A stretch of 64,000 nt of DNA from Candidatus Binataceae bacterium (GCA_035493515.1 DATJID010000058.1:1201-65200), one strand, 5' to 3'; shown: positions 37,917-54,206, counted from the first letter of the stretch. Notes: generated by a model from the letters alone, not told the origin. Numbers and translations are program-made.

Positions 37917-38851
37917 CGGAGCTGATCACACTGGTCTGCTTCGCCCTGCTCATCAGCCCCGCGCTGGTCTACTACGTTATCCGGCGAAAGCATCGGCTCG
38001 CGCAGGACCGGGTTCTCGAACGGCGGCTCGGAGATTCTTCTGCAACTCCAGACACGCAACCCGCGTGGATCCCGCCCAAGGACGAGATGCCGCTCGTGCT
38101 CGCGCGGCTGCGCCTGGTGCCGTGGGTAGGCAGCTACCTCAGCCAAACCATGCAGCAGGCGACTGTGCCGCTGGTCCTCGCGATACCGGCACTTTTGGTT
38201 GCCGGCACAGTCATCTCGGGTCACTGGCTGAAGGTCCCCGGCGCGCTAATATGCGGCCTTGCCGCCGCCACGCTTCCCGTGCTTTACGCTCGGCGCAAGG
38301 GCAGCCAACGGCTCGCGCTGCTAAGCGAACAATTGCCGTATCTGATCGATCTTCTCAAGTCAGCGCTCGAATCAGGCCATACGATGCTGCGCGCCCTGCA
38401 GATGGCGGGACAGAATCTGCCCGAACCGATTTCCAGCGAGCTGCGCCTGATCGTCGAGCAGGTTCAGCTCGGGATGACCTTGCCCCTGGCGTTCGAGGCG
38501 ATGTATCAGCGGGCACCGGTCGAGGAGCTGGCCTTTCTGGTTGCCGCAGTGCGGGTCCAGACCGACGTGGGGAACAGCATGGCCGAGATCTTTCAGCATG
38601 TCGCGGAAGGAATGCGCAACCGCCAGCGCGCTGAACATCAGCTGCGCGCGCTCACCGCGCAGTCGCGAGCGGGTGCGATCATCGTAACTTTGCTCCCGTT
38701 CATCGTGCTGCTGGCCTTCAGTTTCATCAATCCGTCCTATTCACGTCCGCTGTTTCACAATGCGTATGGACAAAAGATGCTCGAAACCGCTGTCGTGCTC
38801 GACATAATTGCCTTTCTCGTGATGCGCAAGATCGCGCGAGTCGACTACTAA
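37913..38851 (+). CDS. tadB: TadB-type inner-membrane platform protein (T2SSF)
   Basis: ATGA overlap with tadA. QLPYLIDLLKSALESGHTMLRALQ...ELRLIVEQVQLGMTL (T2SSF domain). Confidence 0.85.
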   Translation: MTELITLVCFALLISPALVYYVIRRKHRLAQDRVLERRLGDSSATPDTQPAWIPPKDEMPLVLARLRLVPWVGSYLSQTMQQATVPLVLAIPALLVAGTVISGHWLKVPGALICGLAAATLPVLYARRKGSQRLALLSEQLPYLIDLLKSALESGHTMLRALQMAGQNLPEPISSELRLIVEQVQLGMTLPLAFEAMYQRAPVEELAFLVAAVRVQTDVGNSMAEIFQHVAEGMRNRQRAEHQLRALTAQSRAGAIIVTLLPFIVLLAFSFINPSYSRPLFHNAYGQKMLETAVVLDIIAFLVMRKIARVDY

Positions 38852-38852
38852 C

Positions 38853-39782
38853 ATGTCCTACATGGTAGCCATCACTGTTTTCTTCCTGGGTCTGACGACT
38901 GTTATGGCGCTGTACTACGGTTTTACAGCGGACGAGCCGGGACAGTCCTGGGCGCGAGAGCACGCCGCCACGAGGTATAGCGGCTCCGGCACCCTCGCCC
39001 GCTCATCGCTTCAATGGAGCGGCATCCCCGGACAATTGCTCGCATGGTGGGTCAGCAAGACGGACGCCGCCGACCAGAACGCGCCCCGCGTACGGCAAAC
39101 TCACATCGCGCTTACCCGGGCAGGTTTCAATCAGGTTGAGCAGTTGGCCGTGTACCGTGCGGCACGGGTCGCCTCGTTCGTACTGGTAATTGCTCTGGGC
39201 CTGGTAATCGCGCACTTTTACCCGAGGTGGCGAGTGCCAGCCGTTCTGGGCGGCGCAGTGATCGGCTATCTGCTGCCCGGCAACATCGTCAAGCGCTTGG
39301 GGCGCAAGCGCCAACTCACCATTCTGCATGAATTGCCCGCTATTCTCGATCTGCTCGTGGTCACGCTGGAAGCCGGACAAGGACTACTCGAAGCGATCAG
39401 AGTCGTTGGCCGCGAGACCGCGCGGCAGGGCCGGGTGCTGGGCAAGGAATTTTCGACTGCGGCGGCCGAGATGAGCGCAGGCATCGCGCTCGAAGACAGC
39501 ATGCGCAATCTCAGCGAACGGACCGGCGTGGACGACCTCAAGGCCATCGGCGCCGTGTTTATCCAGAGCAAAGAGATCGGCGGTCGATTGGGACCTTCAT
39601 TGCGCGCGGCGGGCGAACTGCTAAGCACCAAACGGCGCCTGATGGCAGAAGAGGCGGCGCAAAAGAGCTCGGTGAAGATGCTTTTGCCGCTGGTACTGTT
39701 TATTCTGCCCGCCATGATGATCATCATTCTCGGACCGGCGATTATCCAGATCTTTCAGATGATAATGGGAGCAGCCGCTTAG
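38853..39782 (+). CDS. tadC: TadC-type inner-membrane platform protein (T2SSF)
   Basis: Starts 1 nt after the tadB stop. ELPAILDLLVVTLEAGQGLLEAI...AAEMSAGIALEDSM. Confidence 0.85.
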   Translation: MSYMVAITVFFLGLTTVMALYYGFTADEPGQSWAREHAATRYSGSGTLARSSLQWSGIPGQLLAWWVSKTDAADQNAPRVRQTHIALTRAGFNQVEQLAVYRAARVASFVLVIALGLVIAHFYPRWRVPAVLGGAVIGYLLPGNIVKRLGRKRQLTILHELPAILDLLVVTLEAGQGLLEAIRVVGRETARQGRVLGKEFSTAAAEMSAGIALEDSMRNLSERTGVDDLKAIGAVFIQSKEIGGRLGPSLRAAGELLSTKRRLMAEEAAQKSSVKMLLPLVLFILPAMMIIILGPAIIQIFQMIMGAAA

Positions 39783-39915: not shown

Positions 39916-42540
39916 TCACGATAGTCTGCTATTCCTGGTCCCCGCGACGCGCCATATCGCGGGGAGCACAGCGAGCGCAGCCGCGATTGCCCAGTCGCGC
40001 GGCGCGATCGGTCGGATTTGCAAAAGCGCGGCTATTGGACCGATCGCCATGAAGATAGGCAGGCTCGCGGCGACCAGGAGGGAAAGGATCCAAAAGCTGG
40101 CGCGCGCAGGCAAGGGAGTCCTCCACCACGGACGATCGCCTGCCACTTCCGCCCACATAAGGAACAGGCTTCCCATAATTACCACCACCATGGCGGCCGC
40201 ACGCGCGTAGGGCTCCCCGTGGTTTAGCCGGGCCGCATACTCGCTCAGCGCGGCGACCGCCAACAGCGCGCCCGAGCAGGTTGAGCGCAAAAGCCGGGCG
40301 CTCCCGATCAACGGAGCGTGGGGATCGCGCGGCGGCCGCCGCATCAGGTCGGGCGGGCCCGGCTCGCCCTCGAAAGCCAGCGCGGAGACCGGGTGCACCA
40401 CCATCTCGAGCCACACGAGGGTGACCGGCAGCAGCAAAATCGGCAGTCCTAGGACTGGCGCGATCAGCGCCAGTCCTACCAACGCGAATTTGAATCCGGT
40501 CAAGTATCGCAGCGACTGCTGGATATTGCCGAACACGCGGCGACCCTCACGCACTGTATGTACAAGGGCCGAAAAATCGTCGTCGAGCAGGATAAGATCG
40601 GCGGCGGCGCGAGCGACCTCCGTGCCCCGCCGCCCCATACTCACGCCTATATGGGCGCGGCGCAGCGCAGGGGCGTCGTTTATGCCGTCGCCGATCATCG
40701 CCACGATTTCACCGGCGCGCACCAGCGCGTCAATGATTTGGTATTTCTGTTCGGGTTCCACGCGCGCGAAGATGCTGGCGCTGCGCGCTATCCGGGCGAT
40801 GTCCTCCGAGCTCAAACGCGCCAGTTCGGATCCGTTTACGATCAGGCTGTCATCATGGACGATGCCGGCGGCCTCCGCCACGGCGTGAGCCGTCAAGGCG
40901 TGATCGCCCGTGATAAGCTTGAGCTTGACCCCGGCCGTCTGGCATTCGGCCACCGCGGCGGGGACTTCCGGACGCAACGGGTCACGAAAGCCCAATAAGC
41001 CGTAGAGGACGAGGTCGCTTTCATCGTCTTCGCGCACGCCGCGAAAACCGGCCGACGCACGCGCCACACTCCCGGTCATGCTGGTCGCGCCGGCGTTTGC
41101 GGGATCGCTGGCGTCGGCGAAACGACCCGCTACCGCGATCACGCGCATCCCCTGGCCGGCGAGTTCCGAGTTTATCGCAAGTGCTCGCTCGCGGTCGCCG
41201 GGTTCAGCCCTGCAGTGTTCGAGGATCCCTTCCAGCGCGCCTTTGGCCACGATGCGCGCTCCGGCAGTAACGCCCTCATTGCCAGGCGCGCGCATCCAGA
41301 CGTGAGACATGTGCTTACCCGTCATGTCGAAGGGGTAGTCGTATGCGAGTCTCCAACGATCGTGCAGCGCTTCAACCTGAACACCGTGGCGGCGGCAGTG
41401 CGCCAGTATTTCACGCTCCAGCGAGTCCATGGCGCCGGGTTCGCAAGCAAGTGCCGCCGCCTCCAGTAGCGCAGGTTCGCCGAGCCGTCCGGCGTCCAAC
41501 ACGCGATGTGCTTCGAGCGCGAATTTGCCGGCGGTGAGCGTACCGGTCTTGTCCATGCAAATAACGGTGGTGGAGCCCAGGGTCTCGACGCTCGCCAAGC
41601 GCTTCACCAGCACGCCCTGGCGACTGAGCCGCAGCGCGGCGAGGGTCAGGAATAGGCTCAGCACTACGACCATCTCTTCGCACACCGCCGACATCGCGAG
41701 GCTGATGGAGTAGAGCAAAGCCTCGCGCGGGGGCACCCCGCTAAACCATCGCAGGGCAAAAATCGCGGTCGACAAACCAAGAGCGATCCCTATGAGCCAT
41801 CGCGCGACCCGCGCGGTTTTCACCTGCAGCGGCGTTGCCTGTAACTCGCTCTCGCCAACCAGGCGCGCGATGTTACCAAAGCGCGTGAGCCTTCCGGTGG
41901 CGGTTATTTCACCCACCCCCTGCCCGGCCAGCACCATCGAGCCCGCGAAGAAGCGGCTCTGTTCTTCGGCATCGATGGCGAGAGCCTCCAGATGCGCGGC
42001 TTTTTCCCGGGGTTCGGCCTCGCCCGTCAATTGCGATTCGTCGACGGTGAGATTTGCTGCGCGCCGCACGATCCCGTCGGCATGCAGGACGTCGCCCTCG
42101 CGAAAAAGCAGCAGATCGCCGGGCACCAACTCGGCGGTCGGAACTTCGGCATGCTGCCCGTCGCGCAAGACTCGCGCCCGCGGCGCCACGGCGCGGGCGA
42201 GTTTCTTGAGAGCGCTGCGCGAACGGGCCTCCATCAGCACGTCCACGCCGAGTACCGGGACTATCACGGCCGCGAGCACCGTCGCTTCATGGGGTTTGCC
42301 AAGCAACAAATAGAGCAGCGCGGCACCCGCCAGCATCAACGCCATCGGGTCGGCAAGCATCCACAGCCATTGCACCAGGTGCGCGGCGCGCTCGCGCTCA
42401 ACCAGCAAATTGGGGCCGAACTCGGCGAGCCGCGCATGGGCCTCTTCGTGGCTAAGACCGGCCAGACCGCCGGTGACGCTATGTTCGGATGATCCGGCGG
42501 CCGCGCTTTGGCCGGCAACCGCGTCATTGTCGTCAGTCAC
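39916..42540 (-). CDS. P-type (type II-like) cation-transporting ATPase with an atypical TM4 motif
   Basis: TGEAEP, ICMDKTGTLT, TGDH and GDGINDAPALRRAHIGVSMG. Start taken at a GTG that overlaps the upstream stop (GTGA). An ATG at 42615 is the alternative. Confidence 0.9.
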   Translation of the reverse strand: MTDDNDAVAGQSAAAGSSEHSVTGGLAGLSHEEAHARLAEFGPNLLVERERAAHLVQWLWMLADPMALMLAGAALLYLLLGKPHEATVLAAVIVPVLGVDVLMEARSRSALKKLARAVAPRARVLRDGQHAEVPTAELVPGDLLLFREGDVLHADGIVRRAANLTVDESQLTGEAEPREKAAHLEALAIDAEEQSRFFAGSMVLAGQGVGEITATGRLTRFGNIARLVGESELQATPLQVKTARVARWLIGIALGLSTAIFALRWFSGVPPREALLYSISLAMSAVCEEMVVVLSLFLTLAALRLSRQGVLVKRLASVETLGSTTVICMDKTGTLTAGKFALEAHRVLDAGRLGEPALLEAAALACEPGAMDSLEREILAHCRRHGVQVEALHDRWRLAYDYPFDMTGKHMSHVWMRAPGNEGVTAGARIVAKGALEGILEHCRAEPGDRERALAINSELAGQGMRVIAVAGRFADASDPANAGATSMTGSVARASAGFRGVREDDESDLVLYGLLGFRDPLRPEVPAAVAECQTAGVKLKLITGDHALTAHAVAEAAGIVHDDSLIVNGSELARLSSEDIARIARSASIFARVEPEQKYQIIDALVRAGEIVAMIGDGINDAPALRRAHIGVSMGRRGTEVARAAADLILLDDDFSALVHTVREGRRVFGNIQQSLRYLTGFKFALVGLALIAPVLGLPILLLPVTLVWLEMVVHPVSALAFEGEPGPPDLMRRPPRDPHAPLIGSARLLRSTCSGALLAVAALSEYAARLNHGEPYARAAAMVVVIMGSLFLMWAEVAGDRPWWRTPLPARASFWILSLLVAASLPIFMAIGPIAALLQIRPIAPRDWAIAAALAVLPAIWRVAGTRNSRLS

Positions 42541-44167
42541 TCGCGCGACCGACTCCCCTAAGCCGCTCGATAATTGACGCCGACACGTCCTTGGGATTCC
42601 GCTCCGTATCCACAACGAGGTGAGAGGAATTCGGGATCTCGTTCAGCGCGACGAAGTCGTTACGCTGAGCCAGATAGGTCGCCACGTTAGCATCGGAGAC
42701 TTCGTCGGGGCGGCGCGCTCGAGCGGTAAGCCGGCGCACGATCTCGTCGTGGCTCGCAGTGCACTCGACGAAGAGCAGCGGCACGTCAAGGCGCGCGGCA
42801 AGCGCGCGCGCTTCGGCGCGATGGGTGGCCGCGGCAAAGGTGGCGTCGACGATCACGCCGGCGCCGTCGCGCAGGCGCGCCGCGGCCTCGTCGAGCAGCG
42901 CGGTATAGGTCTTCCGCGTGAACTCGTCGCTGTAGGCGCCGGCTGCATATCCGTCTGAGAGGCGCTCGGTCGGCGCGACACCAGCTACGCATTTGCGGAT
43001 CTCATCGGAGCGCAGCCATTCGAATCCGAGCCGATCCGCCAAACGTCGCGCCACAGTCGATTTGCCGCTGCCCGAGAGCCCACAGACGACGATCAATGCG
43101 GGATGGGACTCGCGCACGTAATCGAGCGCAAGGGCGACGTAGCGTCCCGCCGCCGCAGCCGCCGCATCGCGCACAGCGGGCGCAATCGCGGCGTCGCGGC
43201 TGGTCAGGCTCTCGACCTTGGCGCGCACCAATGCGCGATGAATCTTGTAGAGCGGAATCAGCAGCGGAAGATCAGCGTCGCCCGATGCCTCGCGATACGC
43301 ACCCACCAACTCTTCCGACAGGCCGCAAGCGCCGAGCCGATCGAGATCCATCGCGAGGAACCCCACGTCCGAAGCGACGTCGACGTAGCGCAGCCTCTCG
43401 CTGAACTCAACGCAGTCGATGATGGTAATCGTTTCGCCATCAAGTGAAACGTGTTCGCAACGCAAGTCGCCGTGGCCTTCGCACACGCGGCCGCCGAGTG
43501 CGCGGCGGTTGAGCAGGCTCCAACGCGCTTCGATCGTGCGATGAGCAAAGCGTTCGAGCTCCTCCAATTGTGCCGGCGTGATGGTGTCCGCGCGATCGCG
43601 CGCAAGCTCTTCCAGGTTTCCGCGCATCAGCCGCCAAATCGCCGCCGCCGACCCATACTTCCATGCCTGACCGGCGGCAGCCGCGAGATGGAAAGCGGCG
43701 AGCCGCGACGCGACGGCGCGAATCTGCGCGATGCTCACTTTGCCATCGGCCACCATTCGATCGAGCATCGCGCCCTCGCTCATCCGACGCATCCAGACCG
43801 CCCATTCGACCGCCGTTCCCTCTTCCGCCGCGCCGATGGCATCCGCGCTCAGCGTTAACTCACCGCTGCCGCTCTGTATGATCGCAACGACGTCCAGGTA
43901 AACGGCTGGCGCGAGTCGCCGATTAAGCCGTACTTCGTCCAGGCATAGTTGGTGGCGCCGGGCGAGCGAAGAGGCGTCGAGAAACGAAAACCGCACTGGC
44001 TTCTTGATCTTGTAAACGTAGTCCCCCGCCAAGAAGACGTAGGAAATATGTGTTTGGCGCGATTCAACTGAGCGCGGACGATCACGATACATCTCCGGAC
44101 GCATCATCGCGGCCACGACGCCTGGCAGATCGCGTTTGTAAGCGGTGGATTGCGATGGCGTCGTCAT
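42533..44167 (-). CDS. Bifunctional aminoglycoside-phosphotransferase-like kinase / P-loop (AAA_33-type) kinase fusion
   Basis: N-terminal YVYKIKKPVRFSFLD...GHGDLRCEHV (APH-like). C-terminal VVCGLSGSGKSTVARRLA (Walker A). Confidence 0.8.
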   Translation of the reverse strand: MTTPSQSTAYKRDLPGVVAAMMRPEMYRDRPRSVESRQTHISYVFLAGDYVYKIKKPVRFSFLDASSLARRHQLCLDEVRLNRRLAPAVYLDVVAIIQSGSGELTLSADAIGAAEEGTAVEWAVWMRRMSEGAMLDRMVADGKVSIAQIRAVASRLAAFHLAAAAGQAWKYGSAAAIWRLMRGNLEELARDRADTITPAQLEELERFAHRTIEARWSLLNRRALGGRVCEGHGDLRCEHVSLDGETITIIDCVEFSERLRYVDVASDVGFLAMDLDRLGACGLSEELVGAYREASGDADLPLLIPLYKIHRALVRAKVESLTSRDAAIAPAVRDAAAAAAGRYVALALDYVRESHPALIVVCGLSGSGKSTVARRLADRLGFEWLRSDEIRKCVAGVAPTERLSDGYAAGAYSDEFTRKTYTALLDEAAARLRDGAGVIVDATFAAATHRAEARALAARLDVPLLFVECTASHDEIVRRLTARARRPDEVSDANVATYLAQRNDFVALNEIPNSSHLVVDTERNPKDVSASIIERLRGVGRASD

Positions 44168-44206: not shown

Positions 44207-45013
44207 TCAAGTCGTTTCCAGAAATGCGCGCAGCACGTCGCTGGTGGAGATGATTCCGACCAGCCGCTCGCCCTCGACCACCGGCAGCGCGCCGACCTTG
44301 AGCTCGAGCAGGCGCTTCGCTGCTTCATGAATGGGCGTGACGGCGGTAACGGTAGCAACCTCCGGGGTCATCGCGAGCCTGACCTCGGTATGGTCGAGGT
44401 AACCCTCGTGGCGGCGAAGATCGCGGTCAGTGATAACTCCGACCACCTTCCCATCGCTCAAAACCGGTATGGTCCGGAAATGGCCTGAGAGCATCCTGGC
44501 CCGCGCGGCCTCGAGTTTTTCGGCCGGCTCGGCGGTGATGGGGTGCGGCGTCATCCATTTGGCAACCAGGTGCACGTCAGACTCCTGGCGCTGAACGGTC
44601 AATACCGGACAGGTCGCTTCACGCAAGACGGCCTCCGCCACGCTGCCCAGCAGCATTCGCCGGACTCCCTTACGGCCGTGTGTCGCGAGCACGATCAAAT
44701 CGGCCGCCATCTGGCGTTCCAGCGCAAGTATCTCGTGGGCCGGATCTCCGATCCGGCTCATCAACTCGCACTTAACCTCCGCGCGCCGGCATTCGACGAT
44801 AGCCGCGAGCTTCTGTTGCGCGATTTTTTCCTGGTCCTTGTAAATGTCCACGTAATTGGGCATCCCGGTGGGCGCCACGACCATCGGAACCACATGCATC
44901 AGAAATACGGTGCCGCCCGTCTCCGTCGCGATACGCACCGCGGCATCCAGTACCGCCTGCGCGGTATCGTCGAACTCGATCGGGGCCAGAATCCGCCTAT
45001 ATGGAAAAGCCAT
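44207..45013 (-). CDS. Universal stress protein domain fused to a CBS pair
   Basis: RILAPIEFDDTAQAVLDAA...LIVLATHGRKGVRRMLLGSVAEAVLREATCPVLTV (Usp), then two CBS repeats (VGVITDRDL, VGIISTSDVL). Confidence 0.85.
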   Translation of the reverse strand: MAFPYRRILAPIEFDDTAQAVLDAAVRIATETGGTVFLMHVVPMVVAPTGMPNYVDIYKDQEKIAQQKLAAIVECRRAEVKCELMSRIGDPAHEILALERQMAADLIVLATHGRKGVRRMLLGSVAEAVLREATCPVLTVQRQESDVHLVAKWMTPHPITAEPAEKLEAARARMLSGHFRTIPVLSDGKVVGVITDRDLRRHEGYLDHTEVRLAMTPEVATVTAVTPIHEAAKRLLELKVGALPVVEGERLVGIISTSDVLRAFLETT

Positions 45014-45082
45014 CGATCTTTCCTCCTCGATCAGCCATCGACTCGGAACGCAATTTCCAGCTCAGTAGCTAACAGTTCACTA

Positions 45083-45097
45083 GCTATAGCCGTGCCA
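45083..45097 (-). promoter_or_regulatory. Sigma54 promoter candidate upstream of the Usp-CBS/kinase/ATPase unit
   Basis: The minus strand reads TTGGCACGGCTATAGCT (TGGCACG perfect, correct spacing, -12 TAGC). The -12 element is 70 nt upstream of the ATG at 45013. Confidence 0.5.
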
Positions 45098-45363
45098 ACG
45101 GAGAGCTCCGCCCGCATCGCGAAATCAGGGACTCGTTGCGGGCGGTAGCCGACAGCCCGGAAAACGACTGCGTCCGATGGATACAGAACTCTCGCTTCTT
45201 GTGACCCGCGAGCACCTGTTATTCGCCAGGGTCGGCAATTGATTGTGCGGAGCAGATGCAATGAAAGATGCAATCAAATCCACTGGGAGAGGTTTGCACT
45301 GCCTGTCTGCGGGCGTGCGCAGGAATCGGGGGTTCCCGCTGTCTGTACCGGGAAGCCGCGTCG

Positions 45364-46902
45364 TCAGTCGAGTCGATAGCGGCGCAGGCGGGCATAGAGC
45401 CGCTTGCGAGACACGCCCAACAGCTTGGCGGCGCGAAGTTTGTTGCCGCCGGTCGAGGCCAGCGCGCGCCGAATGAGATCGCGCTCGTTATCAATGAAAC
45501 TGAGGGTGGGTGAATCAGCCACCGGAACAGCTTGTGGAGCCGGGGCCATGCCTGCTGCGGCCGCGACCGCTGGGGGCAGGTCGGCAATGCGAATCGTATC
45601 TGCGGTTCCAAAAGTGAAAGCTGACTCAATCGCGTTCGAAAGCTCGCGCACGTTTCCGGGCCAGTTGTAACGATTCATCGAGTCCAGCGCCTGCGGTGCG
45701 ATTCCGACGATCGCCGCGGGCCTCATCATGCGCCGGTTGAAAAGCGCGATGAAATGGTCGGTCAGCAGCGGAATGTCGGCCAGGCGCTCGCGCAACGGTG
45801 GCACCTCGATCAGATTGACCTGAAGGCGGTAGTAGAGGTCCTCGCGCAGATGGCCCTCGCGGACCGCGACCTGCGGGTCGCGATTGCTGCAGGCGATCAC
45901 GCGGACGTCGAACGTCACTTCGCGGGTCGATCCGACCGGCCGTACCGTGCGTTCCTGAAGGGCCCGCAAAAGCTTGCTCTGGGTGGCCGCGCTCATCTCG
46001 GTGATTTCGTCGAGGAACAAAGAGCCGCCTTCGGCCGCGCGAAACAGTCCCGGGTAGTCGATGGTGGCGCCGCTGAACGCGCCGCGCTTGTAGCCAAAAA
46101 GCTCGCTCTCGATAAGTTCGCGGGGAATCGCGGCGCAATTGAGCGCGACGAACGGCATCGCCGGCGTGCGCGAGCACTCATGCACCGCCCGCGCCACCAA
46201 TTCCTTGCCAGTGCCACTTTCGCCGACGATCAGTACGGTGCCACGCACACCCGCCGCCGACTCGATCCGCGCGTACAGTCGCCGCATCACCGGCGTAGCA
46301 CCGACCAAACCATGAAAGTTGGTCCGCAGCTCTCCCGCGAGCAGGCCGGCCTCCTTCTCGAGGCTCTGAATCCGCGCCGCGGCGAGCGTTTCCTGGTTTC
46401 TGAAATAGGCCTCGGCCAGCGCGATAATCCGGCAGTGGCTGACCTTGTCGAACACTCGGTACATCGACCAATCCACGCCGTGCGGGAAATTCGCGATCGC
46501 GCTCTCCTCGAACAGATGCATTGAGGCGACGACCTCAGCGAATGGCACCCGCCGCTGCGCCAGCGTGACGCCAATCCGGCGCATCCGGATCACGAACTGC
46601 TCGAAGGTGCCCGCGCGCAAGGTCTCGGTCGTAGCGTCGAGGTCCAGGCCGCAGATCTCGAAGAACTCGCTTTGCGCGAGCGAACGCTCGTCGCCGAAAT
46701 GCAGCAGGTAGAGCTGATACCAATGCTCGAGGATTTCCCTGCGATGCCCGGCGAGCGCATCCATGACTGGTCCCAGCTCGGCCAGTTCATGGTCCCAGAG
46801 CAGATGATAGTAGCTGAGATTATTGCGATGGACCGCCGGTGCTGCAGGCGGCTTAGGTTGGGCCACGGACGATTTACTACCAGTCTTCGCCCCGCCCGGC
46901 AA
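45364..46902 (-). CDS. Sigma54-dependent transcriptional activator (bacterial enhancer-binding protein, EBP) with a non-receiver N-terminal sensor domain and a Fis-type HTH
   Basis: LIVGESGTGKELVARAVH, ESELFGYKRGAFSGA (GAFTGA variant), RVIACSNRD and a C-terminal GGNKLRAAKLLGVSRKRLYARL. Confidence 0.9.
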   Translation of the reverse strand: MPGGAKTGSKSSVAQPKPPAAPAVHRNNLSYYHLLWDHELAELGPVMDALAGHRREILEHWYQLYLLHFGDERSLAQSEFFEICGLDLDATTETLRAGTFEQFVIRMRRIGVTLAQRRVPFAEVVASMHLFEESAIANFPHGVDWSMYRVFDKVSHCRIIALAEAYFRNQETLAAARIQSLEKEAGLLAGELRTNFHGLVGATPVMRRLYARIESAAGVRGTVLIVGESGTGKELVARAVHECSRTPAMPFVALNCAAIPRELIESELFGYKRGAFSGATIDYPGLFRAAEGGSLFLDEITEMSAATQSKLLRALQERTVRPVGSTREVTFDVRVIACSNRDPQVAVREGHLREDLYYRLQVNLIEVPPLRERLADIPLLTDHFIALFNRRMMRPAAIVGIAPQALDSMNRYNWPGNVRELSNAIESAFTFGTADTIRIADLPPAVAAAAGMAPAPQAVPVADSPTLSFIDNERDLIRRALASTGGNKLRAAKLLGVSRKRLYARLRRYRLD

Positions 46903-46942
46903 ACGTCGGCAGCAGCGGGGAAAGTCGCGTAAGGCTTTCGGG

Positions 46943-47398
46943 TCATCCCGCGGCAGCGGTCTCTTTCGGCCTGACCACCAACACAGGCCGCGGCGAACAG
47001 CGGATCACTCGTTCAGCCACGCTGCCAATTAGAAAATGGCTAACTCCTTTGCGGCCATGCGTCGCCATCACGATAAGGTCGGCGTCCATATCATGGGCTT
47101 GGGAAACGATGCCGTCAGCGGCCTCGCCGCTGCGCGTCTCGATCTTGTACGCAACACCGCGACCTTCGAGGTGGGCAACTGTCAGCTTCTCCAACTCGAC
47201 CCGAGCGGTCTTTTCCCACACCGGGTAGGGGTCCATTGGGATCTGGGAAAACTCGGAGGCGTTGAGCGGTAGCGGAGTGACGTGCAATACGCAAAGCGTC
47301 GAGTTGCTTTGCTGCGCGATTTCACGGGCAAAGTGCAATACCACGGCAGAGGATTCGTCAAAATCCACGGCACATAAAATTCTGTTGAACAATTTCAT
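46943..47398 (-). CDS. Universal stress protein (UspA family)
   Basis: ILCAVDFDESS...LIVMATHGRKGVSHFLIGSVAERVIRCSPRPVLVV. Confidence 0.9.
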   Translation of the reverse strand: MKLFNRILCAVDFDESSAVVLHFAREIAQQSNSTLCVLHVTPLPLNASEFSQIPMDPYPVWEKTARVELEKLTVAHLEGRGVAYKIETRSGEAADGIVSQAHDMDADLIVMATHGRKGVSHFLIGSVAERVIRCSPRPVLVVRPKETAAAG

Positions 47399-47423
47399 GC
47401 TCCGCCTCGATCAAAAAATGCTA

Positions 47424-47439
47424 CGCAAGAGCCGGACCA
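47424..47439 (-). promoter_or_regulatory. Sigma54 promoter candidate upstream of the usp-EBP unit
   Basis: The minus strand reads TGGTCCGGCTCTTGCG (spacing correct, -12 TTGC). The -12 element is 26 nt upstream of the ATG at 47398. Confidence 0.4.
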
Positions 47440-47787
47440 TCCTTGATAGCTAGTGTGATTAGCGCGGGAGAAGCGGAAACTGAATTTGCGCGGCTCTGCG
47501 CCTAAACATCTGCTGCGACGGACCTGCGATGCGGTGACGATGCCGGGCGGTGGTGCCAATTGATACAGTCACTGGGCCCAATGGCACCACAACGCTCCGC
47601 CGGCAACGCCAGCGGAAAATACGCGTATCGGCTCGACGATTTTGCCAGGCGGTGCCAATTTGGTTCTCTGAAGCACAATTTCTCCCTTCTGGAATCATCT
47701 TTCCCTTTCTCCACCGATGCGCCGTGAACGTAGATTTGTGACGCTGGCGGACAGATCGCGCGATGCGGCCGGCGCTGGCCTTACATC

Positions 47788-47803
47788 GGGCACGCTCGTT
47801 GCT
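47788..47803 (+). promoter_or_regulatory. Sigma54 promoter candidate upstream of the porin-cytochrome-NirK-like operon
   Basis: GGGCACGCTCGTTGCT (GGCACG-N4-TTGCT). The -12 element is 43 nt upstream of the ATG at 47846. Confidence 0.55.
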
Positions 47804-47845: not shown

Positions 47846-49387
47846 ATGGCGTCTAGAAAATCCGGAGCTCGGATCCTGGCGATTGTCGCTTTGACGGCGG
47901 TCGTCCTCGTGATGGCTATAATGACAGCAGCGCCTAGGGCGTTGGCAGACGACGCTGAGGTGCAGGCCAAGGCGCTCAAACAAGTCGAACGCGAGTTGCG
48001 CCAATTGCGGGCGGATCGTGCTCGCGACCGCAAACTGATCGAGAAGCTCGAAGAAAAGCTCGACCAGGTGCAATCGCAGGACAGCCAGATCCGCACCACC
48101 AATCAGCAGCTTCAAACCAGTACCAAGCAACTGCAGAACAGTAATCAGCAGTTGCAGACAAAAACTGACGAGCAGCTGAAGCAAATTCAGGCCGAAGTAG
48201 CAGAAGGGCCCTCTGAGCGGCAGTTTGCGAAAGCGATCGGCGGCTACATGGGGACGCATCAATTCACGCTGACCGGCGCGGCGGCAGGAGACTTCGTTTA
48301 TGATCGGCAGAACGGTCAGAACACCTTCGCTCTCACTTTCGAACCGTTGATGCTCTATCGTCCGAAGGATTGGCTCTTGTTCGAAGGAGAATTTGAAGCT
48401 GCGTTCGATCCAGGGTCCGGCGCTTCCTTTGACGCTCCCGTCGCCACCGCTCAGATATTCCTCAACGACTACATGGAGATAGTGCTGGGCATCTTCGACC
48501 AGCCATTCGGCGACTGGTTCGAAGATCAAGGACCACTGTGGGTAAACCGCTTCATCACCGCGCCGCTTCCTTTCGGGACCGCTGCGCTGGTGCCGCCGTC
48601 GGATATCGGGATGCAGTTGCGCGGCGGCTATCAATGGGGTCAGCTCGGGCAGGATGCCGACTACACGGCTTGGGTAGCCAACGGGCCGAGCTATGATTCC
48701 TCGTTGCCGCAGCCGACCATCGGACAGGAACTCAACGGTGTCAATAACATCACTACAAACACCAACGGCAAAGCTTACGGGGCGCGGCTGCGCTTTTATC
48801 CATTCCCGCTCGACAGCAAATTGGGCCGGCTAGAACTCGGGGCGTCGACCTACAACGGGAAGTGGCAAAACGGCCTGTGGCTCAATGCCTGGGACGTGGA
48901 CTTCGCGTATCGTCGGGGGAACCTCCAAACGCGCGGAGAATACATGGAGGCCTACAGGCAGATGCCGGCTGGATCCGGTCCTGACAATCGCCAAGGGTGG
49001 TACTTCCAGGCCGGCTACTTCCTCACCGGCTTGCGGCTTCCCTTCCTCAGCAGAGACCTCAACAGCTATCTGAGCAGGCTGGAGCCGCTAGTGCGCTACT
49101 CCGGGGTCAACCAGCGCGCGGTGGTTGCCGAAGAGATCTCCACCACGCCAGGTCTCGGCTTCAATGGCTCGCCCTCGATTTTTGCTCCGCATGCGCGCGA
49201 GGTTGCACTCGGCCTCGATTACTGGATAGCGCCATCGATCGTATGGCAGACCGAGGTCGATTTCGAGCTGCCCCGTGCAGGCGGCACGCTCTACTCGTTC
49301 AACGGCGAGAGCACACCAAGCGCAAGCAGCGTGGGCGCCACGCCCAACGACCGCGCAATCCTGACTCAGTTTGCGGTCGGCTTCTAA
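47846..49387 (+). CDS. Outer-membrane porin (phosphate-selective porin O/P-like) with an N-terminal Gln-rich coiled coil
   Basis: Signal peptide MASRKSGARILAIVALTAVVLVMA. Coiled coil with QQLQ repeats. Alternating beta-strand pattern. Terminal ...LTQFAVGF (C-terminal Phe). Internal ATG with GGAGGGGGAG upstream. Confidence 0.7.
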   Translation: MASRKSGARILAIVALTAVVLVMAIMTAAPRALADDAEVQAKALKQVERELRQLRADRARDRKLIEKLEEKLDQVQSQDSQIRTTNQQLQTSTKQLQNSNQQLQTKTDEQLKQIQAEVAEGPSERQFAKAIGGYMGTHQFTLTGAAAGDFVYDRQNGQNTFALTFEPLMLYRPKDWLLFEGEFEAAFDPGSGASFDAPVATAQIFLNDYMEIVLGIFDQPFGDWFEDQGPLWVNRFITAPLPFGTAALVPPSDIGMQLRGGYQWGQLGQDADYTAWVANGPSYDSSLPQPTIGQELNGVNNITTNTNGKAYGARLRFYPFPLDSKLGRLELGASTYNGKWQNGLWLNAWDVDFAYRRGNLQTRGEYMEAYRQMPAGSGPDNRQGWYFQAGYFLTGLRLPFLSRDLNSYLSRLEPLVRYSGVNQRAVVAEEISTTPGLGFNGSPSIFAPHAREVALGLDYWIAPSIVWQTEVDFELPRAGGTLYSFNGESTPSASSVGATPNDRAILTQFAVGF

Positions 49388-49391
49388 AGGA

Positions 49392-49682
49392 ATGAAAGCG
49401 ATGACTGGAAAGCATCTTGCAAAAATCCTCGCGCTCGCAATCGCCGGGCTGACGCTCTCGGTCGCCGCCATGGCCGAAGAAAGCAAAACCGAAAAGCAAC
49501 AGATGTTTCTGGATGGTGCACGTCTGTGGCCCGTGTACTGCTCGCAATGCCATAACGCGCGCCCTGGATCGGAGTTTTCTCCCGCGCAGTGGGACATCAT
49601 CATGATGCACATGCGTACACAGTCGAATATGCCCGCGAAAGATGCGCGGGCAATCAAGGAGTATCTGAAGGGTGGCCGCTGA
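49392..49682 (+). CDS. Small periplasmic mono-haem cytochrome c
   Basis: Signal peptide plus CSQCH. Confidence 0.8.
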   Translation: MKAMTGKHLAKILALAIAGLTLSVAAMAEESKTEKQQMFLDGARLWPVYCSQCHNARPGSEFSPAQWDIIMMHMRTQSNMPAKDARAIKEYLKGGR

Positions 49683-49731
49683 AGAATGGCGACGCATGGC
49701 GAACTCATTCAAGGGAAGGCATATAAAGGGT

Positions 49732-50100
49732 ATGAAGATGATCGCTCGTCCGCTAGTCATTTCGGCTCTTGTTGTTGCACTCACCGCTATCTCATTTGGA
49801 ACAGACTACGCCCAGGATGATATCCCGGTCGCCACAACATTCCAGGTCTATTGCTCGCGCTGTCACGGAGACAAAGGGCAAGGTGACGGAGCGGATGGCG
49901 CGACCTTGTCGCCCAAACCGCGCGATTTTACCGACTGTGCGCTCATGAACAAGATACCCGACGCGACGATCGTAAAGGCGATCAAGAATGGCGGCGCCTC
50001 GGTCGACCTCAGCCGTGACATGCCAGCCTGGGGTGAAGAGCTTAAGGACAAGAAAATCAACGCGCTGGCTGCCTACGTCCGCACCTTCTGCCACAAGTAG
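49732..50100 (+). CDS. Periplasmic mono-haem cytochrome c (paralogue A)
   Basis: Signal peptide, CSRCHG, a DMPAW Met-ligand region, and an extra conserved Cys pair (DFTDC...RTFCHK). Confidence 0.8.
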   Translation: MKMIARPLVISALVVALTAISFGTDYAQDDIPVATTFQVYCSRCHGDKGQGDGADGATLSPKPRDFTDCALMNKIPDATIVKAIKNGGASVDLSRDMPAWGEELKDKKINALAAYVRTFCHK

Positions 50101-50128: not shown

Positions 50129-51052
50129 ATGGTTCCGCTAATTTCCGGTTTGCCGGCAAAGCCGCGATATATCTTGCACCGCGCTGCCAGGACCGCCGCG
50201 CTCGCGATGCTGGTCGTGGCTGCAACGGCCAGCCTGCCGCGTTCCGCGCATGCCTCGGAGAAAAGCTTCATGCTCACGGCGGAAAGAAAGCGGGTGAGCG
50301 TGGGCGGCGGATTGACCTACAACGCGTGGACCTACAATGGAACGGTGCCGGGACCCGTTCTGAAGGTTATGCAGGGTGATGAAGTGAAGATCGACCTGAT
50401 CAACCACACCAAGGATGCCCATGGGATAAACGTTCACGCGGCGCAGATATCGCCGCAACACTTCGACGGCGACCCGATGAAATCCGTTAGCTACAGCTTT
50501 CCAGCAGATGTCCCCGGCGTTTTCGTCTACCACTGCACCGCGGCGCCCATCCTCGATCACATCGCCAGCGGCATGTATGGGATGATGATCGTCGAACCGA
50601 AGGCCGGATGGCCCGACGGAAATGCGCAGGAGGTCACGATCGTGCAGGGCGAATTGTACGGCCTCCCAGACGCGCACGGATTCATCGTGGGATCCCATGG
50701 CAAAATGGTCGAGGCCCGGCCCGATTTCGTCGTGTTCAACGGAGCACTGCACAGATACGACGTCGAACATCCCATCGAAATCAAGGTTGGGAAGCTGGTT
50801 CGCGTGTTCTTTGCCAACGCCGGCCCCAACCTCACCTCCGCCTTTCACGTCACCGGCGCACTGTTCGACACAGTGTACAAGAGCGGCAACCCGGCCAATG
50901 CGCTGCATGGTCTGGATACTCTCGAGGTTCCTCCAAGCGACGGTGCGGTCTTCGAGTTTCGTGTTACCGAGCCCGGTGACTACCAGTTTATGGACCTGAA
51001 CCGGGCGCAACAGTATAAAGGCGCCAATGGAGTCTTTCGGGCCACGCCGTGA
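50129..51052 (+). CDS. NirK-like two-cupredoxin-domain copper protein (copper nitrite reductase family, atypical)
   Basis: AAGGAG 8 nt upstream and a Sec signal. HGINVHAA, VYHCTAAPILDHIASGMYGMMIV (type-1 Cu Cys/His/Met loop) and FVVFNG...SAFHVTGALFD. Confidence 0.8.
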   Translation: MVPLISGLPAKPRYILHRAARTAALAMLVVAATASLPRSAHASEKSFMLTAERKRVSVGGGLTYNAWTYNGTVPGPVLKVMQGDEVKIDLINHTKDAHGINVHAAQISPQHFDGDPMKSVSYSFPADVPGVFVYHCTAAPILDHIASGMYGMMIVEPKAGWPDGNAQEVTIVQGELYGLPDAHGFIVGSHGKMVEARPDFVVFNGALHRYDVEHPIEIKVGKLVRVFFANAGPNLTSAFHVTGALFDTVYKSGNPANALHGLDTLEVPPSDGAVFEFRVTEPGDYQFMDLNRAQQYKGANGVFRATP

Positions 51053-51127: not shown

Positions 51128-51484
51128 ATGTTGAAACTCCTCGTGGCCGCGCTCATCGGTGCTGTGGCGTGCACCGCACTAGCAGCGACACCGGCTTGGA
51201 CCGACAGCGCCGAAGAAAACTACGTGACCTACTGCGCGAGATGCCATGGGGAGGACGGGAACGGCGATGGCCCTTCGGTGGCCTCGCTGAAAATCACGCC
51301 GCAAAGCTTCAGCAGCTGCGCCCAAATGTGGAAGATCTCCGACGAGACAATGTTCAAGGCAATCAAGGGCGGCGGCGCCTCGGTTGGCTCGTCCGGCGAC
51401 ATGCCGGGCTGGAGCGTGGACCTCAGCGATGACGAAATTCACGACCTGGTGAATTACGTCCGCACTTTCTGCAAGAAGAAATAG
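51128..51484 (+). CDS. Periplasmic mono-haem cytochrome c (paralogue B)
   Basis: Signal peptide, CARCHG, DMPGW, and the same extra Cys pair (SFSSC...RTFCKKK). Clearly alignable to the 49732 product. Confidence 0.8.
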   Translation: MLKLLVAALIGAVACTALAATPAWTDSAEENYVTYCARCHGEDGNGDGPSVASLKITPQSFSSCAQMWKISDETMFKAIKGGGASVGSSGDMPGWSVDLSDDEIHDLVNYVRTFCKKK

Positions 51485-51639: not shown

Positions 51640-52158
51640 ATGAGTGTTATCAAGTATCTTGCCGCCGGCGCGGCTCTCGCGATGTTCTGCACGCTCGGCG
51701 TGGTTCATCCCGCAGCGGCGCAAACCGGCTCGGCCGCAGGCAAAACGCAGCGGCAGCTGGATATCGCGGCCGCGCGCGCAGACCGCAAAGCGATTGTCGG
51801 CGCAAATATGAATCTAAGCGAAGCGCAGGCCAAAGCGTTCTGGCCGCTCTACGACGCTTACGAGGCCCGCATGGATAAGCTCGACGATCGTCATGCCGCC
51901 GAGGTCAAAGCCTACGCCGAGCACTACCAGACGCTGACCGACAAGGATGCCTCGAACAAGCTCGACGAAGTGATAGCGATCAAGCAGGCGCGCCTCGACG
52001 TGCAGAAGGAATTTGTGCCCAAGTTCCGCGCCGCCACCGGGTCGATCAACACAACCCGGTTTTACCAGATTGATAACAAGCTGAGCGCGATGATTCAGTG
52101 CGACATCGCGCAGATCGTTCCGCTCGCCCGTCCGGGCACCAAGACCGCGAACGAGTAG
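51640..52158 (+). CDS. Periplasmic helical protein, possibly Spy/CpxP-like (LTXXQ-type)
   Basis: Signal peptide. The helical repeats include LSEAQAKAFWPLYDAY. GGGAGGAAA upstream. The functional call is weak. Confidence 0.45.
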   Translation: MSVIKYLAAGAALAMFCTLGVVHPAAAQTGSAAGKTQRQLDIAAARADRKAIVGANMNLSEAQAKAFWPLYDAYEARMDKLDDRHAAEVKAYAEHYQTLTDKDASNKLDEVIAIKQARLDVQKEFVPKFRAATGSINTTRFYQIDNKLSAMIQCDIAQIVPLARPGTKTANE

Positions 52159-52379: not shown

Positions 52380-52907
52380 TCAGGTTTTAGCGCCCAGCCG
52401 AATCGCCGTAGTGCAGTGATAGGCGAAGTTCTTCGCGCCGAAGCACCAGATGATGTCGTTATCCAGCTGCGGCCGGTAGATCGGCACCTGCCCCTTATTG
52501 TTGTCGCAGAAGCAGCGGTTGCATACGTCCTTACCGCAGCAGTCACGGTACGCAATGATGTATTCCTTGCCGTCGGTCGGATGCTGGCACGTCCCCACCC
52601 ACGAAGTTGGCGACGCCACCGTGCCCGGCGGGCACGAGGTCAGCGCTCCACCGCAGCAACTGCACAGGTAGCCGTCGAAGCCGCAGTAGCGCCAGTAATC
52701 GCAACTCGTGAGATCGCCGCCCTCGCCCTCTGCCGCGGCCCCGTTCTCACCGCTCATCTGCGCGTGCGCCTGCTCGACCACGCGGTTGATCGGCAACAGC
52801 GGGATCATCATCCCACCGACCAACGCCTTGCCCAGGTAGCCGAGAAAGCCGCGCCGCGAGGTCCGCTGCGCCACCGTTCGTGAAAGACGTTCTACCAGTC
52901 GATCCAT
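52380..52907 (-). CDS. mauA: TTQ-type amine dehydrogenase small (light) subunit, MauA/AauA-like
   Basis: TAT leader TSRRGFLGYLGKALVGG. CDYWRYCGFDGYLCSCCGG..CPPGT..SWVGTC..YIIAYRDCCGKDVC..CFC...DNDIIWCFGA..YHCT is almost collinear with known methylamine dehydrogenase light chains. This includes both TTQ tryptophans as I recall them (SW, IIW). AGGAGA upstream of the ATG at 52907. Confidence 0.9.
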   Translation of the reverse strand: MDRLVERLSRTVAQRTSRRGFLGYLGKALVGGMMIPLLPINRVVEQAHAQMSGENGAAAEGEGGDLTSCDYWRYCGFDGYLCSCCGGALTSCPPGTVASPTSWVGTCQHPTDGKEYIIAYRDCCGKDVCNRCFCDNNKGQVPIYRPQLDNDIIWCFGAKNFAYHCTTAIRLGAKT

Positions 52908-53051
52908 TCGCCGTCTCCTGTTTCGCGGGTGGCGCCGGATTTCCACCAGGCCGTTTCCCGGCGCTCCCCTGTTCCTGCCAATAGCACCGCCCGTTGCGCG
53001 ACGCCAGTCGCGCCCGCGTGGGACCTCAACTGGTCGCGTGTTCAGCAGCTA

Positions 53052-54206
53052 CTACAGCCCGAACAACGTGTAAGGGTGCTGGCTGACCTCGTTGACCGTG
53101 CCCAGGTATCTGCCTTTGAGCGCAGAGAAAATTTGCAGCTTCGACTCGCTTGTCACCAGCGCGAACAGCAGCGGGTTGTCGTCCTGGCTGACCTTGATCG
53201 CATTGGACTGCAAGGGCATCGGAATCCTGGCGACGCGCTTATGATCGTTGACGTCGTACACCCAGACCTCCGGACCGGCCGACTTTTGTGTCCACTCGCC
53301 GCCCTGATGCATCAGTACGAAAATCAGGTGTCCTGGCGTATAGCCGGCGACCGGCTGCCAGCCGCCTGGCCGCCAACCTTCCTTCTTCTCCGCATCGCTC
53401 AGCATCGACCACCTCTCTGCCGGCTCCGCCGGACTCACGCCGAGGTCCATCGGATAGACCATGCCATGGTAGCTGACGAAATAGGCTTTTTTGTCGATCA
53501 TCGCCGGCAACTGAAAGACCGGGTCCTTCTCGACGTCGAAAAACGGCTTGGCCGTGCGCTTTTGCGAAGTCGTCTTGGCGCTGTCGTCGAAGTCAGTCGT
53601 CAGCATCGAGCCATCGGCGCATACAGAGGCGAATTGGCGATCGCCCAGAATCAATATTTCGGAGCAGCCCGGCGTCTGAATCTCGCCGGCCACCTTCTTG
53701 CCGTCGAGGTCGACCGCAGTGACCGAGGTCGCGGGAGTCAAATTCAGCAGCAAGACAAAGCGCCCGTCAGGCGTCACGCCCATCGAACTCGGATCGGCCA
53801 GCGCGAGCTGACGTTTGCTGGTGATTGGAATCTCGCCAATTCGCGACAGATGAGTAGCGTCGTAGATCGACAGTACGTCTGTGCGATCGCCCTGCGTGCC
53901 GCGCGAATAAAAGGTATCCGCCAGGTAGAAAAATTTGTGGTCGGGTGACGGCGCGAACATTGCGGCCAAACCGCCCGAAAGGTTGCCGAGTACTTTGTGC
54001 GTATCGCCGTCGATCAGCACGATCGGCGTCATCATTATGGAACCTGATAACGGAGTCATGGTCGCGATCCAATGCGGCGAATAGGCCGGCAGTTGCAAGA
54101 CCGTGACTTGTTCATTGGGTGGCATCTGGGCGAGCGCTCCCGGGCCGCCGCGTCCCATCACGACCATGAGGATTGCGAGGAAAAGGAATCCCAACCTTTT
54201 AGTCAT
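53052..54206 (-). CDS. mauB: Amine dehydrogenase large (heavy) subunit, MauB/AauB-like beta-propeller
   Basis: Signal peptide. DTFYSRGTQGDRTDVLSIYD, GVTPDGRFVLLLNLTPATSVTAVD, the Cys pair GCSEILI...SVCADGS, and GWRPGGWQ. Confidence 0.9.
   Translation of the reverse strand: MTKRLGFLFLAILMVVMGRGGPGALAQMPPNEQVTVLQLPAYSPHWIATMTPLSGSIMMTPIVLIDGDTHKVLGNLSGGLAAMFAPSPDHKFFYLADTFYSRGTQGDRTDVLSIYDATHLSRIGEIPITSKRQLALADPSSMGVTPDGRFVLLLNLTPATSVTAVDLDGKKVAGEIQTPGCSEILILGDRQFASVCADGSMLTTDFDDSAKTTSQKRTAKPFFDVEKDPVFQLPAMIDKKAYFVSYHGMVYPMDLGVSPAEPAERWSMLSDAEKKEGWRPGGWQPVAGYTPGHLIFVLMHQGGEWTQKSAGPEVWVYDVNDHKRVARIPMPLQSNAIKVSQDDNPLLFALVTSESKLQIFSALKGRYLGTVNEVSQHPYTLFGL

Follow-up and report, generated by a model that had tools for sequence, protein, structure and literature searches.

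The NmpRSTU system of Myxococcus xanthus controls a sigma-54-dependent, autoregulated regulon that is induced by hypoxia (PMC11841059). In this system NmpU, a haem-binding sensor kinase that has been discussed with references to the globin-coupled kinase AfGcHK, feeds the NtrC-like activator NmpR (PMC11841059). NmpR binds tandem GCGCA-N5-TGCGC dyads upstream of -24/-12 promoters, and its targets under hypoxia include a CBS gene that leads the regulator operon, a universal stress protein (USP) and a P-type ATPase with a cbb3 oxidase (PMC11841059). The DevR/DosR regulon of Mycobacterium tuberculosis is similar in content: it includes USPs, ctpF (a P-type ATPase), the Rv2005c (USP)-Rv2004c operon and hspX, a USP gene leads the devRS operon, and the binding sites are found in tandem (PMC3177182). 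Here we describe a locus of Candidatus Binataceae in which a gene for a sigma-54 enhancer-binding protein (EBP) lies among three sigma-54 promoter matches. It is part of a stretch of 64,000 nt with 62% GC, referred to below as the window, whose closest protein matches are annotated as Candidatus Binataceae or "delta proteobacterium" metagenome-assembled genomes.

As far as can be read from sequence alone, the locus resembles NmpRSTU in its sigma-54 promoters, tandem dyads, autoregulation and CBS, USP, P-type ATPase and respiratory-type targets. In the mechanism that we propose, the EBP would bind 17-bp dyads at the sites UAS1 and UAS2a/UAS2b and would remodel closed sigma-54 holoenzyme complexes at the promoters P1, P2 and P3 through ATP hydrolysis. 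P1 would drive the genes for a Usp-CBS fusion, an APH-like/P-loop kinase and a P-type ATPase. P2 would drive usp and the EBP gene itself, a positive autoregulation, and P3 would drive the genes for a probable anion porin, three c-type cytochromes, a NirK-derived type-1-copper protein and a 172-aa secreted protein. The idea that one EBP serves these three units was put forward in an earlier model reading of the DNA (the sequence-only reading), and the conserved promoters described below lend it comparative support. We consider it likely that a one-component sigma-54 regulon around a globin-fold EBP is real. Judging from gene content and analogy, the globin-fold domain would respond to oxygen, redox or energy limitation; the content of the regulon in the activator family matches that of the hypoxia regulons of DevR and NmpR.

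Candidate sigma-54 promoters

The six strings quoted in the sequence-only reading were all present at the positions given for them, and the GG-N10-GC spacing was borne out for the three promoter matches. P1 (TGGCACGGCTATAGCT, 45082-45097, minus strand) consists of the -24 element TGGCAC and the -12 element TAGC and lies 69 nt from the Usp-CBS ATG at 45013. P2 (TGGTCCGGCTCTTGCG, 47424-47439, minus strand) has a weak -24 element, TGGTCC, and lies 26 nt from the usp ATG at 47398, and P3 (GGGCACGCTCGTTGCT, 47788-47803, plus strand) is found 43 nt from the porin-gene ATG at 47846. The consensus TGGCACG-N4-TTGCW was scanned over the 64 kb and scored out of 12. P1 and P3 were the two best matches in the window (11/12 each), and P2 scored 9/12, a level shared by 33 sites including itself.

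The promoters were compared with those at the loci of activator relatives, which comprised L001-L004 (identical Usp protein), L005 (84% EBP identity), L165/L166 (82%), L167 (82%), L168 (74%) and L169 (86%); about twenty full-length activator relatives with 48-62% identity were also collected. Every one of the five loci with a Usp-CBS unit (window, L005, L165, L167 and L169) keeps P1 as TTGGCACGGnTATAGCW. At P2 the sequence GATGGnnnGGCTyTTGC is invariant in five of six loci (window, L165, L167, L168 and L169) and is missing in L005. P3 is conserved in L167 and L169, and in four of five loci if the window and a variant in L168 are counted; the L168 variant is a different sequence at the same position (TGGCGCACAAATTGCG) that retains GG-N10-GC. 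The P3 of L165 is degenerate, its -24 GG now being CG, at a place where an insertion sequence cuts the operon. This element, with a DDE_3 transposase, follows the small cytochrome gene, and the remainder of the porin operon is missing (L165 3537-21267 and L166).

Across these orthologous loci of 74-86% EBP identity, P1, P2 and P3 stand out as conserved islands in intergenic DNA that has otherwise diverged. Conservation of the -24/-12 elements in related genomes had been proposed as a test in the sequence-only reading, and it was found for all three promoters. A simple sigma-70 scan gave no match in the three intergenic regions. We judge all three -24/-12 matches to be, very probably, genuine sigma-54 promoters, on the grounds of their conservation at the same place in diverged orthologous loci and not of the statistics of the window.

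Other sigma-54-like matches were also considered. Two that score 10/12 (49406-49421 and 49527-49542, plus strand) lie inside the gene for the 93-aa cytochrome and were rejected as promoters. The second of them is also present in L167 and L169, a conservation that is due to the coding sequence and was not counted. Another 10/12 match, GGGCACGCTATTTGCG (56793-56808, minus strand), has no dyad nearby and is found 224 nt upstream of a gene for a 218-aa HTH_3/Peptidase_S24 (LexA/CI-like) repressor (55913-56569).

A 17-bp dyad upstream of the promoters

The conserved upstream element is a 17-bp dyad with the consensus TGTATCC-ATY-GGAYACA and an invariant core, CC-ATY-GG, flanked by TG and CA. The window has three copies. 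UAS1 (TGTATCCATCGGACGCA as read on the minus strand, 45169-45185) has its centre 81 bp upstream of the -24 GG of P1 and is kept in all five orthologous loci with P1. Its counterparts are TGTATCCATCGGATACA in L005, which is a perfect palindrome, TGTATCCATTGGACACA in L165, TGTATCCATCGGACACA in L167 and TGTGTCCATTGGATACA in L169. Between P2 and P3 there is a tandem pair, UAS2a (TGTATCAATTGGCACCA as read on the minus strand, 47551-47567), which aligns with TGTATCCATTGGCACCA in L169, and UAS2b (TGGTGCCATTGGGCCCA as read on the minus strand, 47573-47589), which has 0 mismatches to the loose pattern TGNNNCCATYGGNNNCA. UAS2a and UAS2b are 22 bp apart centre to centre, the same spacing as in the L169 pair. 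They lie 121 and 143 bp from P2 and 208 and 230 bp from P3, and the corresponding distances in L169 are shorter, 69/91 bp (P2) and 153/175 bp (P3). Within the 64 kb the loose pattern finds these three dyads, all in the intergenic regions flanking the EBP gene, and one other site with one mismatch. A matrix built solely from the dyads of other loci ranked UAS1 (score 18.8), UAS2a (17.7) and UAS2b (16.8) first to third in the window, the next match scoring 11.5; scores of that height were reached by single shuffled windows in 3 of 30 cases.

The upstream motif of the sequence-only reading was a different one, an AT-rich CAATTG core 115-140 bp upstream of each promoter. Such strings are present at 45235-43, 47555-64 and 47654-63, and only part of this proposal survived the comparison: the string at 47555-64 (GCCAATTGAT) overlaps the conserved dyad, being the middle of UAS2a, and the other two do not. 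As a shared motif CAATTG occurs at chance frequency, with 15 copies in the window and 19 occurrences of the 9-mer with one mismatch versus 14 expected, and orthologues did not support the copies at 45235-43 and 47654-63. The former was rejected as an operator because the stretch is deleted in L005, yet L005 keeps P1. The latter was rejected because it is not conserved in L167 or L169 and is unscored by the dyad matrix. A third operator at 47651-47663 was likewise discarded, since this is only a half-site, GGTGCCAATT, lacks conservation and departs from the dyad pattern at 5 positions. The 10-mer GGTGCCAATT is directly repeated about 98 bp apart, at 47553-47562 and 47651-47663, and the second copy could be a relic, or else an auxiliary half-site by which the long gap to P3 is reduced.

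Three loci have an extra opposite-strand gene between the EBP and Usp-CBS genes (L165 11546-12049, L167 11606-12133 and L169 7225-7725). In L165 and L169 it encodes a CBS pair, and in L167 its product is 175 aa long and has no family assignment. The gene has its own sigma-54 match (TGGCnnnnAAATTGCr) and shares the P1 dyad in divergent orientation. It is missing from L005 and from the window (45186-45363), where the CAATTG at 45235-43 sits in the remaining gene-free stretch. In L165 a second tandem pair of dyads also immediately precedes the EBP gene (9857 and 9880), and further dyad/promoter pairs of this locus precede genes for HSP20, a luciferase-like monooxygenase and a CHAD-domain protein.

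The association of the dyad with the activator was assessed by comparing 26 loci of the activator family (382 kb) with 128 loci around other sigma-54 activators (1.76 Mb), which served as controls. Perfect dyads numbered 12 in the family loci and 0 in the control loci. Dyads followed 40-160 bp on by a correctly oriented sigma-54 match numbered 49 and 4, respectively, or 12.8 and 0.23 pairs per 100 kb, an enrichment of about 55-fold beside this activator family. The distance from the dyad centre to the -24 GG has a sharp peak at 80-84 bp (13 of the 49 pairs), and tandem partners in the family loci lie about 22 bp further out. Among the family genes behind a dyad and promoter are those for DUF2267, HSP20, a ribosome hibernation factor fused to a cold-shock domain, CBS pairs, hemerythrin, a BON protein, cytochrome c, a TrkA-type channel, acyl-CoA dehydrogenase and a flavin monooxygenase. 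We infer that the EBP is the protein that binds the dyad.

The activator and its sensor domain

The EBP gene (45364-46866, minus strand) encodes 500 aa, as judged by Pfam, motifs, homologue N-termini and fold. An EBP with a Fis-type helix-turn-helix between the promoters, as the sequence-only reading had it, was confirmed by Pfam (Sigma54_activat PF00158, 1.3e-62; HTH_8, 5.2e-11). The start at 46902 given in that reading needs revision: homologue N-termini, and the 500-aa call in a contig with an identical Usp, indicate that it is likely GTG 46866 and not TTG 46902. The protein has the Walker A sequence GESGTGKE, the Walker B sequence LFLDE and the loop GAFSGA, a one-residue variant of GAFTGA. 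No receiver (Response_reg), GAF or PAS domain was found in the Pfam scan, and the N-terminus is all-helical.

The sensor domain (residues 14-184, numbered from GTG 46866) is conserved across the activator family. It had no Pfam match at E<=10, a PDB sequence search gave only spurious S100-A9 matches, and a comparison of the sensor profile with the DosC globin of E. coli by hhalign gave no signal. Its AlphaFold (AF2) model is all-helical with a predicted local distance difference test score of 90. The best Foldseek matches to the model were BpeGReg, AfGcHK, DosC and cytoglobin, with template modelling scores of 0.55-0.63, a probability of 1.0 and E-values of only 0.03-0.2. On the basis of this model, the predicted N-terminus is a divergent sensor-globin fold. 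A link to sensor globins by sequence is suggested through P0229, a globin-histidine kinase, which matches both the sensor profile (E 9e-14, hhalign 98.8%) and Pfam Protoglobin (PF11563; 29.4 bits, cut-off 25). In P0229 the segment GRSHAEAGVP aligns with AEVHARIGIP of DosC, which includes H98, the residue that we take to be the proximal haem ligand. The activator family has invariant His residues elsewhere, in SMHLFEES and FDKxSHCR, and an invariant Tyr that, in an approximate alignment, lies roughly where the distal Tyr of sensor globins is found.

The domain is rare. An exhaustive profile search recovered only 220 clusters (50% identity) with the sensor domain among 1.84 billion representatives; the 36 long members include 26 sigma-54 activators, a small number of histidine kinases or GAF proteins and one protein with a hemerythrin domain. 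In other architectures the domain stands after DUF2249 and hemerythrin (P0138), before PAS-HisKA-HATPase-REC (P0208), before HisKA-HATPase (P0229) and before GAF-HisKA-HATPase (P0268). Among these four proteins only P0229 keeps the canonical proximal His, and it is the one that does not have the His of SMH. The either/or of the two His positions may mark a ligand switch.

Predicted target proteins and gene content

The unit downstream of P1 begins with the Usp-CBS fusion gene (44207-45013, minus strand; Pfam Usp 7.5e-32, CBS 2e-26). It is followed by the gene for a 544-aa kinase with an APH-like N-terminus and a C-terminal P-loop domain (42533-44167, minus strand; AAA_33 2.1e-31). The fusion of APH-like and P-loop parts, noted before, was upheld by full-length relatives with 50-60% identity, which carry APH (PF01636) before AAA_33. 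The last gene encodes a type II-like P-type cation ATPase (39916-42540, minus strand; Pfam E1-E2_ATPase and Cation_ATPase_N/C). Its start overlaps the stop of the kinase gene by 8 nt, and the NCBIfam matches of the product are all under equivalog cut-offs. Just downstream of the ATPase gene, on the other strand, there are genes for T2SSE (a type II secretion/type IV pilus-like ATPase) and two T2SSF-family proteins (36516-39782, plus strand); L167 has the same neighbours.

The usp gene (46943-47398, minus strand; Pfam Usp 3.9e-33) is 76 nt upstream of the EBP gene and is probably co-transcribed with it. The usp-EBP gene order is kept in L005, L167, L168 and L169. In L165 the usp reading frame is chimeric beyond about 50 codons.

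The unit downstream of P3 starts with the gene for a 513-aa outer-membrane protein with a signal peptide and an N-terminal coiled coil, assigned through its relatives (47846-49387, plus strand). The protein has no Pfam match of its own and the PDB sequence search was empty; several relatives with 56-62% identity carry PF07396 (Porin_O_P), and it is probably an OprO/P-type porin. The next genes, all on the plus strand, encode a small secreted mono-haem cytochrome c of 93 aa (49401-49682; CSQCH motif in the translation and a weak Cytochrome_CBB3 match), a cytochrome c whose start codon is uncertain (49672-50100; Cytochrome_CBB3 5.6e-12), a NirK-derived two-domain cupredoxin of 307 aa (50129-51052), another cytochrome c (51128-51484; Cytochrome_CBB3 1.4e-11) and a secreted protein of 172 aa (51640-52158). 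The last of these had no family match in the Pfam and NCBIfam scans, and its synteny is kept in L167 and L169.

The cupredoxin had been called NirK-like in the sequence-only reading. This description holds for its origin, since it aligns full-length with solved copper nitrite reductases (E 1e-52), but not for the catalytic type-2 copper site, which is lost. It scored 165 bits against TIGR02376 (NirK), under the cut-off of 296. The His/Cys/His/Met ligands of the type-1 copper are retained. The residue that we take to be the catalytic Asp is replaced by Asn (HGINVH in place of HxxDFH), as it is in two of the three best-scoring Geobacillus chains, and the C-terminal His of VTHQF, presumably a type-2 ligand, aligns to Leu. 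Orthologues in L168 and L167 lose other type-2 ligands. Since the type-2 ligands and the catalytic Asp are lost, a functional nitrite reductase was rejected, and a connection of the operon with nitrite finds no support. The sequence is better read as that of an electron-transfer blue-copper protein. Converging on the end of this operon there are genes for light and heavy chains of a methylamine-dehydrogenase type (52380-54206, minus strand), an assignment based on Pfam Me-amine-dh_L and Me-amine-dh_H in a contig of identical gene order; these genes also adjoin the operon in L167. The cupredoxin might serve this dehydrogenase because a type-1-copper protein together with c-type cytochromes is the classic acceptor chain of tryptophan tryptophylquinone dehydrogenases.

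The arrangement of the three units, with the porin-cytochrome-cupredoxin genes divergent from usp-EBP and these followed by Usp-CBS-kinase-ATPase, is kept in L167 and L169 and partly in L165. L168 does not have the Usp-CBS unit, and L005 has no porin operon within 10 kb. The contig with an identical Usp protein has the same gene order and product lengths, with the activator called as 500 aa and the ATPase as 874 aa.

Alternative explanations

Several observations weigh against the regulon proposed here. Two consensus matches with at most one mismatch were observed in the window versus 0.75 expected, and two or more were seen in 18 of 100 shuffles, which is not significant; P2 has a poor -24 element. 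L005 keeps P1 without P2 or the porin operon, and the three-promoter set is thus not universal. The dyads of P3 are 208-230 bp away in the window versus 151-175 bp in L167 and L169, far from the optimum of 80-84 bp. A tblastn search with E. coli RpoN gave no match in the window or in the Binataceae loci collected and matched only betaproteobacterial control loci; sigma-54 is presumed to be present in this organism, with indirect support from the many intact EBPs of Binataceae. The lost nitrite-reducing site of the cupredoxin weakens any nitrite or nitric oxide (NO) logic. Finally, the position of the proximal His is occupied by Leu in the EBP segment RIGVTLAQRRVPF (GVTLAQRRVP), and this Leu is invariant in the family alignment. 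With the canonical proximal His replaced, haem binding, and hence sensing of O2 or NO, is no more than a possible function of the domain.

The shuffling result, together with the 33 sites that score as P2 does, is what would be expected if the -24/-12 matches were chance occurrences in GC-rich DNA and the genes used ordinary sigma-70-type promoters. This explanation is very improbable, given that the three islands are conserved in position and orientation in diverged orthologues, that a phased upstream dyad accompanies the promoters across the activator family, that the three intergenic regions have no sigma-70-like match and that an intact sigma-54 activator is encoded between the promoters. 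If the promoters are real, the element upstream of them could still be the AT-rich CAATTG core, bound by the EBP or by IHF, instead of the dyad. CAATTG-like strings do lie at the expected distance from each promoter and the one at 47555-64 is inside a conserved site, but the chance frequency of the motif, the deletion of 45235-43 in L005, the lack of conservation of 47654-63 and an invariant core that reads CC-ATY-GG make this hardly credible. The dyad could also be bound by a different regulator, such as a repressor or a further EBP encoded elsewhere, while the local EBP controls other targets. Binataceae genomes have many intact paralogous EBPs with about 60% identity, and in related loci the distance from a dyad to the EBP gene can reach about 9 kb (10-kb flanks were examined). 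Nevertheless, perfect dyads and dyad-promoter pairs are essentially confined to this EBP family in comparison with other EBPs, and no other regulator gene is conserved in these loci. NtrC-type activator sites have dyad symmetry and tandem spacing and lie upstream of the -24 element, and the symmetry, the 22-bp tandem and the position about 80 bp upstream of -24 found here correspond to this geometry. We regard a different regulator as unlikely.

Within the proposed regulon, the nature of the signal is a matter on which the evidence is divided. The globin-fold domain could be a non-haem sensor, as in Bacillus RsbR, that reads something other than O2 or NO. Candidates would then be a metabolite, a change in thiol redox state at the conserved SHC motif, or another protein, for instance the Usp that is probably co-transcribed with the EBP. 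Almost every family member has Leu or Phe in place of the proximal His, Pfam Protoglobin does not match the window protein, and other invariant residues are found in SMHLFEES and FDKxSHCR. Against this, the invariant Tyr is near the distal-Tyr position in the approximate alignment, the invariant His of the following helix is an alternative candidate for the haem ligand, and the regulon content is like that of hypoxia regulons controlled by haem sensors. We consider a non-haem sensor, with these candidate signals, to be a serious possibility that falls just short of probable.

More tentatively, and with some doubt on our part, these proteins could represent an undescribed receptor class, in which a globin fold without the proximal His and with new invariant His/Cys residues is fused to a sigma-54 AAA+ domain and governs a dormancy-type regulon in Binatia (USP, CBS, HSP20, ribosome hibernation factor, P-type ATPase and periplasmic cytochromes). 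If so, the same response to oxygen or energy limitation would have been wired independently for a third time, DosRST and NmpRSTU being the other two cases, and the globin fold would bind a cofactor or signal in a new way. The USP/CBS/P-type-ATPase/HSP20 package recurs in three regulatory wirings that are unrelated to one another, and this points to a shared physiological module for survival when oxygen or energy is limiting. A globin-fold sensor without the canonical haem ligand is also a compact test case for signalling by that fold. Binatia are abundant in soil and sediment and, because they have no cultured member, their regulation can be read only from sequence. The locus yields a testable unit with exact promoters, a 17-bp operator with its spacing, a defined activator family and coherent stress/dormancy targets, and regulons in metagenome-assembled genomes of Binatia could be predicted directly from paired operators and promoters.

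Comparison with known systems

The resemblance to part of the DosR regulon that the sequence-only reading had pointed out was corroborated with respect to target gene content: the USPs, ctpF, the Rv2005c-Rv2004c operon and the USP-led regulator operon are the points of likeness, and HSP20 and the hibernation factor of family relatives extend the likeness. The regulation is different. DevR is a NarL/LuxR-type response regulator that acts at sigma-70-type promoters with the GAF-haem kinases DosS and DosT, whereas the sole regulator at the Binataceae locus is a sigma-54 EBP. Another one-component EBP is NorR, which has an N-terminal gas or redox sensor domain, binds dyad sites upstream of the divergent sigma-54 promoter of norVW and senses NO through a non-haem iron centre in its GAF domain. 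The Binataceae EBP scored 285 bits against the NorR model over the AAA+/helix-turn-helix part, under the equivalog cut-off of 476, and its sensor domain is unrelated.

Globin-coupled sensors (AfGcHK, BpeGReg, EcDosC and HemAT) are the best match for the predicted fold of residues 14-184 of the EBP, but here a sigma-54 AAA+ activator forms the output, Leu replaces the proximal His and the domain has no Pfam match. In a literature search for a globin-coupled sigma-54 activator, the terms "globin-coupled sensor" and "sigma-54" occurred together only in one general review, and a search for sigma-54 in Binatia returned nothing relevant. With respect to NirK of the Geobacillus/AniA type, the cupredoxin keeps the type-1 copper ligands and has lost the type-2 site.

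The closest mechanistic relative of the Binataceae system is NmpRSTU. NmpR is a phosphorylated response regulator served by a multi-kinase phosphorelay, whereas the Binataceae EBP has no receiver and its predicted globin-fold domain is fused to the AAA+ domain. The operators also differ, TGTATCC-N3-GGATACA in Binataceae versus GCGCA-N5-TGCGC for NmpR, and the Binataceae sensor, unlike the haem-binding sensor of NmpRSTU, does not have the canonical proximal His. The layout is a variation on known oxygen-limitation regulons and the mechanism is standard sigma-54/EBP activation; what sets it apart from NmpRSTU is the direct fusion of sensor and activator, the different operator and the atypical globin.

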